From a virus (taxonomy: Duplodnaviria; Heunggongvirae; Uroviricota; Caudoviricetes), in the IMG/VR virus record IMGVR_UViG_2703718846_000007, positions 1 through 9,788 of that record: a DNA stretch of 9,788 bases; one strand, 5' to 3'. The notes beneath the pieces were generated by a model. That model was given only the letters and a program-made list of their open reading frames with translations, was not told the origin of the DNA and did no database searches. The position numbers and the translations under genes are program-made. Below, piece after piece: positions 2,597 to 8,482 of this stretch (position 1 is the stretch's first letter; each line of letters begins with the position of its first letter).

Positions 2597-3244
2597 ATGA
2601 TGGAAAGCCTTGGCATCAGGCTAAAGAGACTCAGAAAAGATAAGGGACTAACCCAAGTAGAACTGGGTAAGCTTTCAGGTGTAACTGGAGTTACTGTAGG
2701 GTACTGGGAGAAGGATCTAAACGAACCTGGTAGTAAAGCTCTAAGTAAATTAGCCCAGGCATTAGGAACTACTGAGTCCTACCTCCTGTATGGAGTATCG
2801 TCTCCTGAATCATCTTTTATGCAGATCAATCCAGGCTCTCAGATCCCCTATTTTTCTTGGGGTGACGCGATTTCTTTCCTAATTTTAGAAGGAGAGAAAG
2901 CTATGGGAAATGTCGATAGGATCACCACATTCTTTGATGTCGAGGAAGGTGATTTTGCCGTTTCAATGCCTGATGACACTATGCATAACCCAACTGGGTC
3001 GCCGAGCATCCCAGTTGGTGCCACAGTGATCCTAAGGCCTAGAGAAAGTTATAAAAATGGTAGCATCGTCGCTGTAATAGTTCCGGATCCGCTTACAAAT
3101 GAACCATCTATGACTATAAAAAAATTAGTTATTGATGGAAAGCTTGCGTACTTAAGCCCTCTTAATCCACGCTATCAATCATCTTTGCTTACACCAGAGT
3201 GTAAAATTGTTGCCGTAGCAAAAGGCGTACAGTTCAACTTATAG
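2597..3244 (+). CDS. cI: CI-like phage repressor with N-terminal HTH and C-terminal S24 (LexA-like) autopeptidase domain
   Basis: 215-aa ORF with GGGAG upstream. N-terminal HTH LTQVELGKLSGVTGVTVGYWE; C-terminal motifs AVSMPDD (catalytic Ser), TIKKLV (catalytic Lys) and LSPLNPRY align with lambda CI GNSM, TFKKLI and LQPLNPQY. Confidence 0.9.
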   Translation: MMESLGIRLKRLRKDKGLTQVELGKLSGVTGVTVGYWEKDLNEPGSKALSKLAQALGTTESYLLYGVSSPESSFMQINPGSQIPYFSWGDAISFLILEGEKAMGNVDRITTFFDVEEGDFAVSMPDDTMHNPTGSPSIPVGATVILRPRESYKNGSIVAVIVPDPLTNEPSMTIKKLVIDGKLAYLSPLNPRYQSSLLTPECKIVAVAKGVQFNL

Positions 3245-3266
3245 CCCCGTCAAACCCTTTAATCTG

Positions 3267-3292
3267 AGGTCGGCAATGCCGACCTTTTTTTT
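3267..3292 (+). terminator. Rho-independent terminator downstream of the repressor gene
   Basis: Hairpin GGTCGGC-AAT-GCCGACC at 3268-3284 followed by eight T at 3285-3292, 23 nt after the cI stop. Confidence 0.75.
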
Positions 3293-3312
3293 AAATTATT
3301 TTAGATTTTCGC

Positions 3313-3341
3313 TTGACTAAAAAACTAAATACTTTTAGATT
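3313..3341 (+). promoter_or_regulatory. pL-like sigma70 promoter for the early-left operon
   Basis: TTGACT (3313-3318), 17-bp spacer, TAGATT (3336-3341). Flanked by two copies of TTTTAGATTT (3299-3308 and 3333-3342), the same half-site motif seen in the cI/cro intergenic region. Confidence 0.5.
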
Positions 3342-3515
3342 TATCACATACCCAACCCGCCCCACAGAATGCAGGGCAATACTTCGAGTTACCAGGCAGT
3401 GGTCAGGGGTTAAGTAGCCAGCCCGAGGCGTAAGAACATGACGGCAGGGTTCAACTTTAACTATGCAGCAGGTTTTTGTTCCGCCACCCCGGCGTTAAAG
3501 GGAAATGAGGTCAGC

Positions 3516-3668
3516 ATGGATACTATCGATCTTGGCAACAACGAATCTCTGGTATACGGCGTGTTTCCAAACCAGGACGGTACGTTCACCGCGATGACGT
3601 ATACCAAAAGCAAAACGTTTAAAACCGAAGCTGGCGCGCGTCGCTGGTTAGCCAGAAATACTGACTGA
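3516..3668 (+). CDS. Small early protein (50 aa), YdaF-like / DUF1391-like
   Basis: ATG 3516 with GAGG 5 nt upstream; TGA stop at 3666-3668. The ORF-track frame extends upstream to 3438 but that start is less well supported. Family assignment is from memory only. Confidence 0.55.
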   Translation: MDTIDLGNNESLVYGVFPNQDGTFTAMTYTKSKTFKTEAGARRWLARNTD

Positions 3669-3679
3669 TGAGGTTAACG

Positions 3680-4315
3680 ATGGAATTTAAAGATTTACCG
3701 CTATCAATCCAGGAGATTGCAGCACACACACTACGTCAACGTCTGAACGAAGCTATGGCTGAATCTGCAACGAAAGAAACCATTGATAACATGGCTCGTA
3801 ATGTGCACGATGCGTTTACCGGATTGTATTTCTGTGCGTCTGTAAATAAACACGACCCAGAGAGTGTGGCAAAGAAAATTGCAGAAACGACAGTGCAAAA
3901 CATCAATACGAAACCAACCGAAGACGAAATTGACCAGCCTGCCAGTGAACAAAAGAAAGAAAAATCGCCATATGCGGGGAACATGTTTGTTTATGACAAA
4001 CTTATCCGAATTCGTGGCGAAATTCCGACTGAATACCTGGCAAAAATTCACCAGGCATTACTTAAAAATCTGGAAACGGAAGTATTTGATGGCAACACCA
4101 ACGGCTCCTTCGTGGTGTCAGCCCTCACAAAAGAGTGGGATACAGATAATCGCCGGAATGTTGCTACATGGTTATTCAGCAACAAAGCTGCTGCCCTGGA
4201 AGCTGCGGCCTGTATTTGCGACCTGCTAAGGACAGACCGCAAATACAACCTGGATGTGTATAGCTATATTTATGCTGAACACTATCCACTCTGGATTGAC
4301 TGGTTTAAAGGGTAA
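3680..4315 (+). CDS. Hypothetical early protein (211 aa), function unknown
   Basis: ORF-track frame 3668..4315. ATG 3680 has GAGG 6 nt upstream; the alternative ATG 3668 overlaps the preceding stop (TGATG). Soluble, non-repetitive protein; no motif recognised. Confidence 0.7.
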   Translation: MEFKDLPLSIQEIAAHTLRQRLNEAMAESATKETIDNMARNVHDAFTGLYFCASVNKHDPESVAKKIAETTVQNINTKPTEDEIDQPASEQKKEKSPYAGNMFVYDKLIRIRGEIPTEYLAKIHQALLKNLETEVFDGNTNGSFVVSALTKEWDTDNRRNVATWLFSNKAAALEAAACICDLLRTDRKYNLDVYSYIYAEHYPLWIDWFKG

Positions 4316-4412
4316 CACCTGCGGGACCGAGCCGACCAGCACCACGATTATTTTATCCTCCATTAAGGGGTGAATTAAAAATGGAGACCAACACGCTGCT
4401 ACGTGTGGTCGT

Positions 4413-4452
4413 GCGCCGGACACGGATAACCTTCCGGCATGCTCTTTAACAA
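4413..4452 (+). promoter_or_regulatory. Candidate processive-antitermination site: hairpin followed by an rrn-type boxA (TGCTCTTTAACAA)
   Basis: Exact 13-mer TGCTCTTTAACAA at 4440-4452 on the plus strand, preceded by hairpin GCCGGA-N12-TCCGGC at 4415-4438. Orientation matches pL-directed transcription. Confidence 0.4.
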
Positions 4453-4477
4453 TCTGGATATCCACAACAGCAATAAC

Positions 4478-4996
4478 CTACGGATTGCTGCTCAATGCTC
4501 TACCTATCTCTTCTTCAGATGGGGGCGGTATATAGTCATCATTGCGTTCAAATTTAAAGCGCGAATCACATTTCAGGCATTTAGAAATATGGAACTTATC
4601 ATGCTCACCAATTTCAACAGGTTGAAGTATTGCTATTACACCATGCTGATAGCAATTGGGACAGGCATAGTGAAAACATGTGTCTTCTTCGTCGAGGCTG
4701 TTCCTGAAAGCATAGACAAAATGCCCAAAACCAGTTTTGTGTATCGTATAGCATTCAAGTTTTCGATTACGCTCGTCAATTTCATGACATTTTTGCTTAA
4801 GCAAGAGTATTTCCTCGTACTGAAGCGCGAGCGTTTTCGCTAGCTCTGCGTTCTGTATTTGTAAGTCTGCCAGTTGGCGACGCATTTCGTAGACAGCCTT
4901 TTCACGTTCAGATTGGCTTTTTGCATCAAGTATTACCTGTAATAAATCAATCGAGACTTTAATTGCCGTTATTGATGAAGTTATTCCAGATAGCAT
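4478..4996 (-). CDS. Hypothetical coiled-coil plus zinc-ribbon protein (172 aa) on an antisense-oriented AT-rich insert
   Basis: ORF-track frame 4478..5113, trimmed to ATG 4994-4996 because a perfect TATAAT lies about 32 nt upstream. N-terminal heptad-like region RRQLADLQIQNAELAKTLALQYEEILLLKQK; C-terminal CPNC...CLKC cysteine pairs. GC is visibly lower than in the flanks. Confidence 0.65.
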   Translation of the reverse strand: MLSGITSSITAIKVSIDLLQVILDAKSQSEREKAVYEMRRQLADLQIQNAELAKTLALQYEEILLLKQKCHEIDERNRKLECYTIHKTGFGHFVYAFRNSLDEEDTCFHYACPNCYQHGVIAILQPVEIGEHDKFHISKCLKCDSRFKFERNDDYIPPPSEEEIGRALSSNP

Positions 4997-5007
4997 TCTT
5001 AACTCTC

Positions 5008-5060
5008 TGTGTTGTTGGGGTATCCGGATTATACAAATTTCTTGTTGTTGGGGAACAACA
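5008..5060 (-). promoter_or_regulatory. Promoter and candidate operators for the antisense gene
   Basis: Minus-strand TATAAT (plus 5028-5033). Two copies of TGTTGTTGGGG (plus 5010-5020 and 5043-5053); the second forms a perfect palindrome TGTTGTT-GGGG-AACAACA (5043-5060) over the -35 region. Confidence 0.5.
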
Positions 5061-5313
5061 GGAACCACCTCGCCTGATGTGGTTAAAAGCAGGCACACAA
5101 CACGAAAGCGCACGGCGAAGGTTTCTTTTCCTTAGAAGGCTTGTCGTTAGATTTCTTCGACCGTGCGCTTCCGGTTGTGGCAATCCGCGAAATGGCGCGG
5201 CGGTAAGTATGGCGGGGTTATCCTTACCCCCACTGGTAGCACCGGGTTGTCAGGTTGACCATACGCTTAAGTGACAACCCCGCTACAACACTCCATGTTG
5301 AGTATTGACCTTT

Positions 5314-5354
5314 GGCGGCATCAGTTTAATTGCTGGCTGATGTCCGCCCTTTTT
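5314..5354 (+). terminator. Rho-independent terminator (plus strand)
   Basis: Stem GGCGGCATCAG (5314-5324), 12-nt loop, stem CTGATGTCCGCC (5337-5348), then CTTTTT (5349-5354). Confidence 0.6.
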
Positions 5355-5550
5355 AAAGTGAATTTTGTGATGTGGTGAATGCGGCTAAGCGCACGCGGAA
5401 CAGTTAAAAGACCATTTGTTCTCCGTATCAATACTTATGGGTAGGTACTTGCAGGCGGGTCCCTGTATTCCGGCGTTAATTGTTAACTGGTTAACGTCAC
5501 CTGGAGGCACCAGGCACCGCATCACAAAATTCATTGTTGAGGACGCGATA

Positions 5551-5739
5551 ATGGAAACGTTATTACTCAATTCCACTACGCCTGAGACTCGTTTTGAAAT
5601 TGGCGTTATCACTGGCGATAAAAACTTTATTGAAGATGCCATTAATCAGATAAAGCATGAGCCAGATTCATCAAATGAGATATGCATTGCTTCAATGCTG
5701 GCCCGTTTACGCCCGACGCAAAAAGGATGCTGGCAATGA
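5551..5739 (+). CDS. Hypothetical small protein (62 aa)
   Basis: ATG 5551 with GAGGA 7 nt upstream; stop TGA 5737-5739 overlaps the next start. The ORF-track frame begins at 5416 but upstream in-frame starts lack a Shine-Dalgarno and use rare codons. Confidence 0.45.
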   Translation: METLLLNSTTPETRFEIGVITGDKNFIEDAINQIKHEPDSSNEICIASMLARLRPTQKGCWQ

Positions 5740-5939
5740 ATACCACATTTGCACTTGTTCTGACGGTTTTTCTTGTTTCCGGTGAACCAGTTGACATGGT
5801 TATTGGCGTATACAGCTCAATGAAAGAATGCATGGCTGCCGCAGATGAACAGAAAATTCCCGGTAACTGTTATCCGGTCGATAAAGTTATTCACCAGGAT
5901 AATAACGAAATCCCGGCAGGACTTAAAACAGCGCCGTAA
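5736..5939 (+). CDS. Hypothetical small protein (67 aa) with an N-terminal hydrophobic segment
   Basis: ATG 5736 overlaps the upstream stop (ATGA), with AAGGA 8 nt upstream. N-terminus MNTTFALVLTVFLVSG looks like a signal peptide or transmembrane helix. The ORF-track frame starts at 5682. Confidence 0.5.
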   Translation: MNTTFALVLTVFLVSGEPVDMVIGVYSSMKECMAAADEQKIPGNCYPVDKVIHQDNNEIPAGLKTAP

Positions 5940-6016
5940 TTGATATTCGGTTTCATTTTTATATGTCAGCAATGACAGGGATTTGTTCACCCTTAAATCT
6001 GTAATGAGGTTTATCA

Positions 6017-8482
6017 ATGAGCACTGATAAAGAAGAATTTGCATTATATTGTGAAGCAAAAAATGACAAAGTCAGAAAACGCCTTGGAATTAAAGGTGGT
6101 TTTTACTGGACTACAGCAAAAAAATTATCTGTTGCCATCTCCCGCTGCATTACCGCAATGGATGACAACGATTATGATGAAGACGACTTTAAAAAACCCG
6201 TCCGCGTCCATTTACCCGTTGTGAATGACCTTCCACCTGAAGGCGTGTTTGATACTGAATTCTGTAACCGTTACGAAAAAGGCGGGGAAGATGGCATCAC
6301 AATGGTATTTATCGCGCCCTCACCCTCTGCGCAGGACAAACCAGCCAACACTGACAATACCAACGTCAACGGCGAAGACATGACTGAGATTGAGGAGAAC
6401 ATGCTCCTGCCGGTTTCAGGTCAGATTCTGCCTGTTCGATGGCTGGCACAGCACGGCAGCGAAAAACCGATCACACACGTTTCGCGGGACGAACTGCGCG
6501 CATTACATAACGCACAGGATGAAAAACTTCCCGCCGTTACCGCGCTGGCTATCTCAAATAAAGCAGCGCAACTCGAACCGCTGGAGATTCGCGATCTCCA
6601 CAAACTGGTGCGAGACACTGACAAAGTTTTCCCCGCCCCCGTAAATTCGGACCTGGGACTGATAACTTCTTTTATCGAAGCATACCTGGACGCCGACTAC
6701 ACCGATCGCGGTCTGCTGACAAAAGAGTGGATGAAAGGAAATCGTGTTTCGCGTATCACCCGTACGGCTTCCGGTGCAAATGCCGGTGGCGGGAACAAAA
6801 CCGATCGCAATCCGAATTTAGTACACACCTTCGATACGCTGGATGTGGAGACTGCAGCAGCCACACTTCCGATGGATTTTAATATTTATGAAATTCCGGG
6901 TAGCGTTTATCGTCGCGCAAAAGAAATCGTCCTGAAAAGAGAAAGTCCGTTCAAAGAATGGTCCGCAGCACTTCGCGCAACCCCGGGTATTCTGGATTAT
7001 TCCCGCGCCGCTATTTTTGCACTTATCCGGAGCGCTCACCCTGAGTTTTATCACTACCCGGGACGCCTTCAGGGGTATATCAACGCCCACTTAACGGAGA
7101 CTGATCACGAGAACCCCAGCAAGGAAACTCTCACTGCTGCACGACATACACCGGAAAAAGATATCCTGGAAGAAGTTAACCGCGAACTGGCTGCTGAACG
7201 CGAAACAGAAGAAGAAAAAAATAATGAGGAAAAATCACAACCGTCTGACGCAATGGCAGATGAACAGGCAACGGCCGAAGCAATGGAGCCGGATACAACT
7301 GAACATCACCAGGACACGCAATCGCTGGATACTCAGGAACAGGTAGATCCAGTTAAACAGGTAAAAGTTACCGCTGACGAAGTAAACAAAATTATGCAGG
7401 CAGCCAATATCAACCAGCCTGATGCCGACAAAATACTGGCAGTCCATCGCGGTGAGTTCGTTGACGGAATTAGCGACCCGAATGATCCGAAATGGGTTAA
7501 GGGGATTGAAACCCGCGATTCTGTGAACCAGAACCTGCCCGAATCGGAACAAAACGACCAGAAAGCGGAACAGAACAGCCCAAATACGTTACAAAACGAG
7601 CCAGAAACGAAACAGCCTGAACCAGAAGAGCAACAAGAACCGGAAAAAGTCTGCACCGCCTGCGGTCAGAGCGGTGGCGGCAACTGCCCTGATTGTGGCG
7701 CGGTGATGGGCGACGCAACATACCAGGAAACATTCGATGAAGAGAATCAGGCTGAAACTCAGGAAAATGATCCGGAGGAAATGGAAGGCGCTGAACATCC
7801 GAACAATGAGAATGCTGGTAACGATCAGCATCACACCAGCGATAGTAAAACTGGCGAGGCGGCAGATCCCTTAATTACGGTGAACAGTCATCACATTATC
7901 ACATCCACCAGCAGGGTATGGCACCATCTGATGATCGACCTTGAAACGATGGGAATTAACAGCAATGCGCCCATCGTAGTTATTGCTGCAGTGTTTTTCG
8001 ATCCGCAGACCGGGGAAATCGGACCGATATTTTATGTTGTCATCAGTCTGGTTGACGCAATGGACAAAGGTGCTACTCCCGATGGTGACGTAATCGAATG
8101 GTGGCTGGCGCAGTCCAGCGAGGCCAGATCTGCAATATTGGTAAATCAAATTCCGTTAGATGATGCACTATTGCAATTGCGGGAATTTATCGACGAAAAC
8201 TCCGGTGAATTTTTTGTTCGGGTCTGGGGAAATGGAGCCAGCTTCGACAACGTGATTTTACGCCGTTCATATGAACGGCAGGGTATCCCCTGCCCGTGGC
8301 GTTACTGCAACGATCGCGATGTGCGCACAATCGTTGATCTGGGAAAAGCCATAGACTTCGATGCCAGAACAGCTATTCCGTTCGAAGGCGTACGCCATAA
8401 TGCACTGGATGATGCCCGCCACCAGGCAAAACAAGTTTCAGCTATCTGGCAAAAACTGATCCCGAGTCAGGTTGATTTTTAA
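6017..8482 (+). CDS. Large prophage exonuclease (821 aa): RecE/exodeoxyribonuclease VIII-like N-terminal region, acidic low-complexity linker, CxxC-x9-CxxC zinc ribbon, C-terminal DEDDh-type 3'-5' exonuclease domain
   Basis: ATG 6017 with GAGG 7 nt upstream. C-terminal about 196 aa (nt 7892-8479) carry DEDDh motifs MIDLET, GNGASFD and HNALDD. Zinc ribbon CTACGQSGGGNCPDCG near nt 7651-7700. N-terminal segments (NTNVNGEDMTEIEENMLLP..., DYTDRGLLTKEWMKGNRVS...) resemble enterobacterial exonuclease VIII proteins as I recall them. Confidence 0.85.
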   Translation: MSTDKEEFALYCEAKNDKVRKRLGIKGGFYWTTAKKLSVAISRCITAMDDNDYDEDDFKKPVRVHLPVVNDLPPEGVFDTEFCNRYEKGGEDGITMVFIAPSPSAQDKPANTDNTNVNGEDMTEIEENMLLPVSGQILPVRWLAQHGSEKPITHVSRDELRALHNAQDEKLPAVTALAISNKAAQLEPLEIRDLHKLVRDTDKVFPAPVNSDLGLITSFIEAYLDADYTDRGLLTKEWMKGNRVSRITRTASGANAGGGNKTDRNPNLVHTFDTLDVETAAATLPMDFNIYEIPGSVYRRAKEIVLKRESPFKEWSAALRATPGILDYSRAAIFALIRSAHPEFYHYPGRLQGYINAHLTETDHENPSKETLTAARHTPEKDILEEVNRELAAERETEEEKNNEEKSQPSDAMADEQATAEAMEPDTTEHHQDTQSLDTQEQVDPVKQVKVTADEVNKIMQAANINQPDADKILAVHRGEFVDGISDPNDPKWVKGIETRDSVNQNLPESEQNDQKAEQNSPNTLQNEPETKQPEPEEQQEPEKVCTACGQSGGGNCPDCGAVMGDATYQETFDEENQAETQENDPEEMEGAEHPNNENAGNDQHHTSDSKTGEAADPLITVNSHHIITSTSRVWHHLMIDLETMGINSNAPIVVIAAVFFDPQTGEIGPIFYVVISLVDAMDKGATPDGDVIEWWLAQSSEARSAILVNQIPLDDALLQLREFIDENSGEFFVRVWGNGASFDNVILRRSYERQGIPCPWRYCNDRDVRTIVDLGKAIDFDARTAIPFEGVRHNALDDARHQAKQVSAIWQKLIPSQVDF

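Follow-up and report, generated by a model that had tools for sequence, protein, structure and literature searches.

DicF of Escherichia coli K-12 is a small RNA whose maturation from the dicBp transcripts has been described: cleavage by RNase III generates the 5′ terminus of a 190-nt RNA, the 53-nt DicF owes its own 5′ end to RNase E, and the DicF terminator sets the 3′ end of both, with read-through transcripts also being found (bioRxiv 10.1101/2023.04.14.536235; PMC9438474). RNase E releases DicF from the 190-nt species, which builds up once the enzyme is inactivated (bioRxiv 10.1101/2023.04.14.536235). Within K-12 DicF, a CUCCG motif acts against the ftsZ ribosome-binding site (PMC5069750).

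Other structured RNAs are encoded in the early transcripts of temperate phages. The polymerase-utilisation RNAs of HK022, putL and putR, are ~70-nt elements composed of two stem-loops and a triplex (PMC9378689), and like the element described below they lie in an early operon of an N-less temperate phage, 3′ of the promoter and 5′ of terminators. C4 of P1 and P7 and CI of P4 (Rfam clan CL00128) are likewise small structured RNAs, cut from early or immunity transcripts in the same phage groups. In addition, hairpins processed by RNase III are known in phage early transcripts, namely in the lambda N leader and in the T7 early mRNAs.

Here we analyse a non-coding region within a 9,788-nt stretch of DNA from a tailed virus (IMG/VR record IMGVR_UViG_2703718846_000007); the whole of this stretch is referred to as the window. 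Taking the assignment jointly with the domain structure and the distribution reported below, we are confident in identifying the region as the small-RNA locus dicF in a lambdoid prophage resembling Qin.

A dicF locus within a lambdoid early-left operon

The dicF region (5093-5354, plus strand) is situated within a lambdoid early-left operon. A cI-type repressor gene (2597-3244, plus strand; phrog_4) and its terminator (3266-3286, plus strand) are followed on their 3′ side by the PL-like promoter of the early-left operon (3313-3341, plus strand; a consensus match only). Two small ORFs with no assigned function (3438-3668 and 3668-4315, both plus strand) and an inserted antisense gene (4478-4996, minus strand) precede the dicF region. 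The next gene 3′ of the DicF-like terminator is dicB (5551-5739, plus strand; phrog_1251), identified through the RefSeq annotation of the E. coli C5 locus, and this placement means that dicB expression requires read-through of the terminator. Further downstream on the plus strand are recE (6017-8482), with a DUF1482/ydfD-like gene between it and dicB, and then xis and int.

The nearest public locus is the prophage of E. coli C5, at 98.9% identity, and matches to some part of positions 4900-5600 occur in 4730 of 5426 complete E. coli genomes. No sigma-70-like site was found within 4400-6100, and hence no match for the antisense gene's promoter that the original prediction placed beside the stretch. 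Neither the window nor eight related loci contained a tRNA or tmRNA. The original prediction, made from the sequence alone, had proposed that the non-coding stretch might be functionally tied to the adjacent antisense gene. We reject this proposal, as the gene is absent from most carriers of the element, among them Qin, Tritos, cdtI, pPE4 and P1.

The terminator that had been predicted at 5314-5354 (plus strand) was recovered by a terminator scan, which located a stem at 5317-5344 followed by a T-run; the hairpin has a GGCGG.../...CCGCC stem followed by U5 and an energy of -21 kcal/mol. A covariance-model search returned a full-length match to Rfam DicF (RF00039) at 5303-5349 (plus strand), with a score of 37.9 bits (E = 1.2e-6) that is under the gathering score of 48, and this region aligned both to dicF in Qin of K-12 and to the DicF annotated in phage Tritos. 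Judged by its sequence, the window thus carries a diverged DicF-like sRNA, with this terminator as its body and 3′ end. DicF of K-12 Qin (RF00039) occupies the same place in its operon, with the small early-left ORFs on its 5′ side and dicB on its 3′ side, and shares the base of the terminator (UUUGGCGG...CCGCCC-U5-AAAGUGAAUUUUGUGAUG).

Compared with K-12 DicF, the window copy lacks 7 nt of the 5′ tail, and its loop, UUUAAUUGCUGG, is without CUCCG and hence without the anti-ftsZ loop of K-12. The predicted cofold gain with the ftsZ translation-initiation region was -1.5 kcal/mol for the window RNA versus -7.5 kcal/mol for K-12 DicF; cofolding was used instead of RNA duplexfold, which did not discriminate between the DicF-ftsZ combinations. 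The lost motif and the weak predicted gain thus indicate a diverged member of the DicF family, one that probably has targets other than ftsZ.

Three hairpins compose one conserved pseudoknotted domain

Upstream of the terminator, the original prediction listed three successive hairpins, each of which was found in the sequence: CCGCG-N6-CGCGG at 5185-5200 (one base away from the 5186-5201 originally given), GGGGT-N7-ACCCC at exactly 5214-5230, and GGGTTGTCA-N19-TGACAACCC at exactly 5244-5280. They belong to a conserved pseudoknotted RNA domain of 116 nt (5174-5289, plus strand), which we call the core; positions 5185-5280 correspond to 1649250-1649371 in K-12. On the plus strand it is closed by helix P0 (5174-5181/5282-5289) and contains H1 (5185-5189/5196-5200), a CCGCG-AAAUGG-CGCGG hairpin of nearly invariant sequence; P2, a helix of 3 bp (5202-5204/5241-5243); H2 (5214-5218/5226-5230), whose stem and loop are variable and covary strongly; and H3 (5244-5252/5272-5280), a 9-bp stem with a conserved 19-nt loop. 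The H3 loop carries the 3′ strand of the pseudoknot, in which GUAUGG (5207-5212) pairs with CCAUAC (5259-5264). P0, P2, the pseudoknot and the long hairpin described in the next section had been overlooked, as had the DicF character of the terminator hairpin, the unity of the three hairpins and the occurrence of the same domain in P1 and P7.

The region folds far better than expected for its composition. The plus strand of 5085-5354 has a predicted energy of -107.5 kcal/mol versus -83.5 ± 5.2 kcal/mol for 200 dinucleotide shuffles, none of which was as good (z = -4.65). Homologues preserve the pairing. In a plain MAFFT alignment of 79 distinct sequences (A4), 94.7% of cells were paired, versus 34-56% in slid controls, and both partners vary in 11 of 33 pairs. 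A second alignment (A5; 93 distinct sequences), which is by construction fitted to the model, gave 95.3% paired cells versus 33-55% for slid partners; both partners vary in 17 of the 33 pairs, and none of 500 shuffles matched any measure. The sequences in the alignments are closely related. De novo RNAalifold on the MAFFT alignment produced a poorer and partly conflicting structure, and it revealed P2, which was then tested separately.

Individual substitutions illustrate how the helices are maintained. The one varying pair of the pseudoknot is UA in 82 sequences, CG in 8 and UG in 3, with GUAUGG/CCAUAC becoming GCAUGG/CCAUGC in P1 and independently in the lambdoid-type copy L215. P2 is GGU/ACC in 85 sequences and GGC/GCC in 5, while H2 occurs as CUGGGG/CUCCAG, CCCGGG/CCCGGG, CCAGG/CCUGG and CUGGG/CCCAG. 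In H3, GGGUUGUCA/UGACAACCC is replaced by GGGUAACCA/UGGUUACCC in Izhakiella, GGAUCACCA/UGGUGAUCC in the metagenomic copy L209, GGAUUGUCA/UGGCAAUCC in Citrobacter and GAGUUGCCA/UGGCAAC in P1, where H1 reads GCCGCG-ACAGG-CGCGGC. The search patterns themselves fixed some positions of the H3 loop and junction, and some of the loop invariance stems from this; the copies of P1, P7, cdtI and F1055, which were found by BLAST and not selected by pattern, show the same conservation. The alignment holds 177 G-U cells versus 48 A-C cells, and this excess of G-U identifies the transcribed plus strand as the strand that is folded.

Taken together, the covariation of P0, P2, H2, H3 and the pseudoknot identifies the three hairpins as parts of one domain, and the conservation of pairing that the original prediction named as its check is borne out in both alignments. 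The description of the stretch as structured and non-coding also holds: the energy z-score and helix covariation exceed chance, and no reading frame is conserved in homologues, where the H2 loop carries indels of 1, 4 and 7 nt. Searches of Rfam 15 with windows of 701 nt and 216 nt, at the gathering threshold and at E ≤ 10, gave no gathering-level match over the core, with the best matches by E-value being noise at 9-13 bits; the only sub-threshold matches were DicF and STnc100, neither of which covers the core.

A long hairpin shares a strand with the closing helix of the core

Immediately 5′ of the core, and overlapping it, is a long hairpin that we refer to as LH (5093-5181, plus strand), with a 5′ arm at 5093-5121, a 3′ arm at 5155-5181 and ~25 bp. 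It is present in both the minimum-free-energy and centroid folds, and is longer than the ~20 bp of double-stranded stem expected of an RNase III substrate. By analogy with K-12 DicF, RNase III probably processes the transcript at LH. Placed by RNA length only, 190 nt upstream of the 3′ end of K-12 DicF, the K-12 cut would map ~5 nt before GGUUGUGGC, within the LH 3′ arm. The K-12 pathway of RNase III cleavage, RNase E cleavage and termination suits the anatomy of the window. Regarding the choice offered by the original prediction between a small RNA and a structured leader or terminator block, each option is therefore partly right, as the stretch is part of the early-left transcript and its K-12 homologue yields small RNAs.

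Like the processing hairpins of the lambda N leader and T7, LH is a long imperfect stem of ~25 bp between units of a polycistronic early RNA; unlike them, its 3′ arm is one strand of the closing helix of the next domain. The 3′ end of LH, GGUUGUGGC, doubles as the 5′ strand of P0, so the two helices cannot form simultaneously and cleavage of LH would switch the pairing partner of the shared strand. P0 has a covarying position (C-G to U-A) that is unexplained by LH. Equivalents of LH occur in three lineages with unrelated upstream sequence (the Qin, cdtI and L198 types), and in each of them the 3′ arm ends in CGUUGUGG, always overlapping the 5′ strand of P0.

The core is shared by lambdoid prophages and P1

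Positions 5150-5290, which include the core and part of the long hairpin that K-12 also carries, are almost invariant between the window, K-12 and Tritos, whereas DicF and its flanks are only ~80% identical. By this comparison the core is better conserved than DicF. The domain is present in many lambdoid prophages of Enterobacterales, once in each phage, and a model of it (R1) likewise found one copy per locus. Lambdoid copies found by BLAST, such as those of cdtI, pPE4, Salmonella phage F1055 and Stx2c phages, are always in the early-left operon, 300-900 nt 3′ of the repressor gene. Scans by sequence pattern extended the set to genomes of Escherichia, Citrobacter, Trabulsiella, Erwinia and Izhakiella, ~240 viral or metagenomic loci, and ~500 plasmids, most of which are ~90-100 kb, the size of P1.

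In P1 and P7 the core lies in the leader of the ban operon, directly 3′ of the C1-controlled promoter P1ban and starting ~35 nt after it. The P1 record annotates a ‘dicF-like region’ at 68791-68892, an interval that takes in the terminator but no more of the core than its 3′ portion. The H1-H3 core of P1 and P7 is 77% identical to that of the window and has compensatory changes in H2, H3 and the pseudoknot, and as in lambdoids it is found between a repressor-controlled early promoter and an intrinsic terminator. In contrast, the flanks are unrelated: there is no long hairpin and no evident P0, the P1 terminator (GCCCAUCUUCGGGUGGGC-U6) is not DicF-like, and the genes 3′ of the core are tRNAs, tciABC and ban. 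Between its promoter and this terminator, P1 is predicted to make an RNA of ~180 nt, near the 190 nt of the K-12 species. These alignments identify the domain itself, and not its flanks, as the part common to lambdoids and P1/P7.

Loci with and without the core

A terminator was found within ~100 nt 3′ of the core in 65 of 70 unique contexts, and the other five have an extended version of the hairpin. Only the metagenomic copy L209 is without a downstream terminator. The sequence of the terminator differs between groups, being DicF-like in lambdoids, with a conserved GGCGG/CCGCC base and a variable top, and unrelated in P1.

A core-independent scan, keyed on the DicF terminator and spacer, yielded ~117 evaluable DicF-type loci. 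In 31 of these (~26%) the core is missing, and the long hairpin is joined to the terminator through a short spacer. At one locus (L289) exactly H1-H3 have been lost and P0 is kept as a plain hairpin. Downstream, dicB mostly accompanies core-bearing loci and other small genes mostly accompany core-less ones, but dicB is not 3′ of the core in cdtI, Salmonella phage F1055 or P1. Comparison of gene content between core-bearing and core-less loci identified no gene common to all core contexts, indicating that the association with dicB is linkage only.

The interval from the repressor gene to the core contains no annotated or detected N-like protein in any of the window, Tritos, cdtI, pPE4, F1055, mEp460 and an Stx2c phage. 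N-like matches were also absent from 94 core-bearing loci and from 24 of the 25 core-less loci that have at least 3 kb of upstream sequence, using as probes lambda N, P22 gp24 and the N-like protein of POCJ13 (translated from L273), a set that misses divergent N proteins. Shigella phage POCJ13 has an N-like gene, keeps the DicF-like terminator and contains a shortened core. The anticorrelation between N proteins and the core that POCJ13 prompted was set aside, since it is undermined by the 31 core-less loci, with N-like matches missing from 24 of the 25 examined.

Discussion

We tentatively favour the explanation that the core acts autonomously, as an early RNA domain that is processed from its transcript and binds a conserved partner, while giving it somewhat short of an even chance. 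The polycistronic, repressor-controlled early-left transcript carries LH (5093-5181), the type of substrate that RNase III cuts. Cleavage at LH would make the 5′ end of an RNA ending at the DicF-type terminator, as in K-12, from which RNase E would then free DicF (53 nt in K-12). The same cleavage may free GGUUGUGGC for pairing with GCUACAAC, thereby closing P0 and giving a compact RNA. The 5′ end of this RNA would be made by RNase III in lambdoids or lie near the transcription start in P1, and its 3′ end would come from the terminator or from RNase E. The domain could then be viewed as a horizontally exchanged early non-coding RNA module, in which the invariant surface of H1, the junction and the H3 loop with its pseudoknot would act on a partner conserved throughout Enterobacterales, a host protein being the likeliest candidate. 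The attached terminator hairpin would give the 3′ end and, in DicF types, might also serve as a separate base-pairing regulator.

Several features lead us to favour an autonomous RNA. Formation of the 5′ end is conserved, through either an RNase III hairpin or a nearby promoter, the closing helix is built from the two ends of the domain, and a 3′ terminator is nearly always present whatever its sequence. Moreover, the domain alone is exchanged between P1 and lambdoids, its presence is optional, and the P1 RNA (~180 nt) and the K-12 species (190 nt) are similar in length. Finally, each phage has one copy and no gene is common to all contexts.

Some observations argue against an autonomous RNA. 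A core species of ~130 nt is unreported, with the published Northern blots having used DicF probes, and P0 is not evident in P1-type copies. In addition, a cis-acting transcription element would be just as much at home in such a place, early in the operon and right before a terminator.

One such element would be a put-like RNA in cis, whereby the nascent domain binds the RNA polymerase that is transcribing it and promotes read-through of the DicF-type or P1 terminator and of Rho sites within the long stretches that are not translated. We consider this possible but unlikely; if true, it would allow expression of dicB, recE, xis and int, or of ban in P1, in phages without N. In every case the domain is in the sense orientation within an early operon under repressor control. 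Its distance from the promoter ranges from 35 nt to ~1.8 kb, and 12-35 nt separate it from a strong intrinsic terminator that the downstream genes must pass. No core-bearing phage examined has an N-like protein, POCJ13 combines an N-like gene with a shortened core, and the invariance of the loops suggests that the partner is conserved to the degree that RNA polymerase is. However, the core is missing from ~26% of DicF-type loci, where the terminator is equally strong and 24 of 25 lack an N-like match, so the core is not required for read-through there. Nor does this explanation account for why an RNase III hairpin in competition with P0 should be conserved, and the L209 copy, which has no terminator downstream, also speaks against it.

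Homology with HK022 put was considered and rejected, as BLAST detected no similarity to positions 22000-32500 of HK022, where its immunity region lies, and model R1 had no match there. The architectures also differ, with the core having 116 nt, five helices and a pseudoknot. Each phage has a single core whereas HK022 has left and right put copies, and unlike put in this comparison the core is missing from about a quarter of the related loci. A bolder formulation, to which we give about one chance in four, is that the core represents a new class of factor-independent RNA whose target is either the host RNA polymerase during transcription or termination factors, or in a variant a sensor of a host signal that gates early-left expression. 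If this were true, the core would license read-through of the early terminator and would be a second fold for RNA-mediated antitermination, unrelated to HK022 put, in N-less lambdoids and in P1.

The core is equally distinct from the small immunity RNAs. C4 and CI are ~70-77 nt long and the core is 116 nt. The c4-a1b1 model reached only 9 bits over the core (E = 9.6), which is no model match, and in P1 the core is in the ban leader whereas C4 is in immI.

[quoted passage not shown] The domain does lie exactly between the two cleavage sites, and in K-12 the 190-nt species is the RNase E substrate for DicF that accumulates when the enzyme is inactivated. Against a scaffold, the domain is more conserved than the DicF it would serve, it is kept in P1/P7 and cdtI-type phages whose terminators are unrelated or seedless, DicF-type RNAs occur without it, and the invariant loops and pseudoknot exceed the needs of a spacer.

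A compact covarying fold with a pseudoknot and conserved junctions directly 5′ of an intrinsic terminator is also the usual layout of a riboswitch, and the domain might be imagined as an aptamer that binds a small molecule, or responds to some other host-state signal, and so controls termination at the hairpin beside it. We regard such a sensor as very unlikely: inspection of the sequences found no alternative pairing of the domain with the 5′ arm of the terminator that is kept across the window, cdtI and P1, the P1 and lambdoid terminators are unrelated, nuclease sites flank the domain, and it matches no known aptamer family. A small protein-coding gene, for which mechanical ORFs exist at 4963-5274 (plus strand) and 4959-5183 (minus strand), or hairpins arising by chance can be dismissed in view of the compensatory substitutions in the stems, homologue indels that are not multiples of three, the z-score of the fold and the intergenic position of the region in Qin.

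The core forms part of two known entities, the 190-nt K-12 precursor and the P1 ‘dicF-like region’. The domain is undescribed in the literature that we surveyed on put-like elements, DicF covariation and the ydfC-dicF spacer. The dicF papers covered treat the upstream part only as a precursor or as the ydfC 3′ UTR, never as a structured domain.

DicF is among the oldest known bacterial sRNAs, and most E. coli genomes carry its locus. Within this locus, however, it is the upstream domain and not DicF that is conserved best. That the same domain also heads the P1 ban operon indicates an independent, exchangeable RNA module of early transcription in temperate phages. Looking forward, the identity of its partner would reveal either how phages without N pass their first terminator or a new RNA effector of early phage development.

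Variation in the core and its flanking elements

The most divergent core found (positions 1400-1635 of the metagenome contig L209) forms P0 as GUGCUGU/ACAGCGC and H3 as GGAUCACCA/UGGUGAUCC. The terminator 3' of the core is absent at this locus, and the core runs straight into a CAAGAGCA...CCGG block that lies 3' of the terminator in other lineages.

In the deletion variants L019 (2646-2766), L039 (1631-1752) and L084 (5220-5341), the 5' arm of the long hairpin that otherwise precedes the core, GCACACAAC, is joined directly to H1 via a repeated CGCGAAA, leaving the P0 5' strand missing; L019 has a damaged pseudoknot strand as well, and this copy of the core may be decaying. Shigella phage POCJ13 (L273, 3380-3610), a Stx-type phage with an annotated N-like antiterminator, retains a DicF-like terminator, but its core is reduced to the 3' third, beginning at the H3 loop. 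The core is missing altogether from 31 DicF-type loci (L276-L326; e.g. L276, 5500-5800), where the long hairpin is followed by the spacer AAAUAACGACAUUGCUGUGUGUAG and then the terminator. At one of these, L289, exactly H1-H3 are gone and GUUGUGGC-AAUCA-GCUACAAC is retained as a hairpin.

An extended hairpin terminator was found 3' of the core in copies from Erwinia, Izhakiella, Trabulsiella, Salmonella phage F1055 and the metagenome locus L198 (L030, 4660-4830; L009, 3130-3320; also L031, L015, L028 and L198), one example being GGCGGUACC...GGUACCGCC-U6. The hairpin encloses AGGAG and an ATG or GTG at which a small conserved ORF begins (MF[YC]R..[FL]FTQQ.RASP.DGLITQSTR), and the start codon of this ORF is therefore inside the terminator. 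The F1055-type lineage (L009, 2920-2935; also L187 and L170) also carries a string resembling a tRNA T-arm, GGTTCGATTCC, ~90 nt 5' of the core; ARAGORN detected no tRNA at this string.

Organization of the early-left operon

Within 3266-3341 on the plus strand of the window, a strong terminator (GAGGTCGGCAATGCCGACCTT followed by an eight-T run) lies immediately 3' of the repressor gene, and downstream of it is the promoter-like site TTGACT-17-TAGATT. Judged by its sequence this site is likely PL, which would place the core ~1.8 kb from its promoter in the window prophage, versus ~35 nt in P1. The early-left operon also contains an insertion on the minus strand (4478-4996), a phrog_1244 gene encoding 172 aa of unassigned function, which Qin, Tritos and mEp460 all lack; its orientation would make its transcription convergent with that of the operon.

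Beyond the DicF-type terminator, the plus-strand stretch 5351-5570, spanning the dicF-dicB spacer and the dicB leader, matches Rfam STnc100 (RF02076) at 33.9 bits (E = 1.3e-5), a sub-threshold score (gathering score 47). Because positions 5470-5550 are invariant in comparison with the E. coli K-12 Qin locus and Tritos, another conserved RNA element may lie immediately 5' of dicB.
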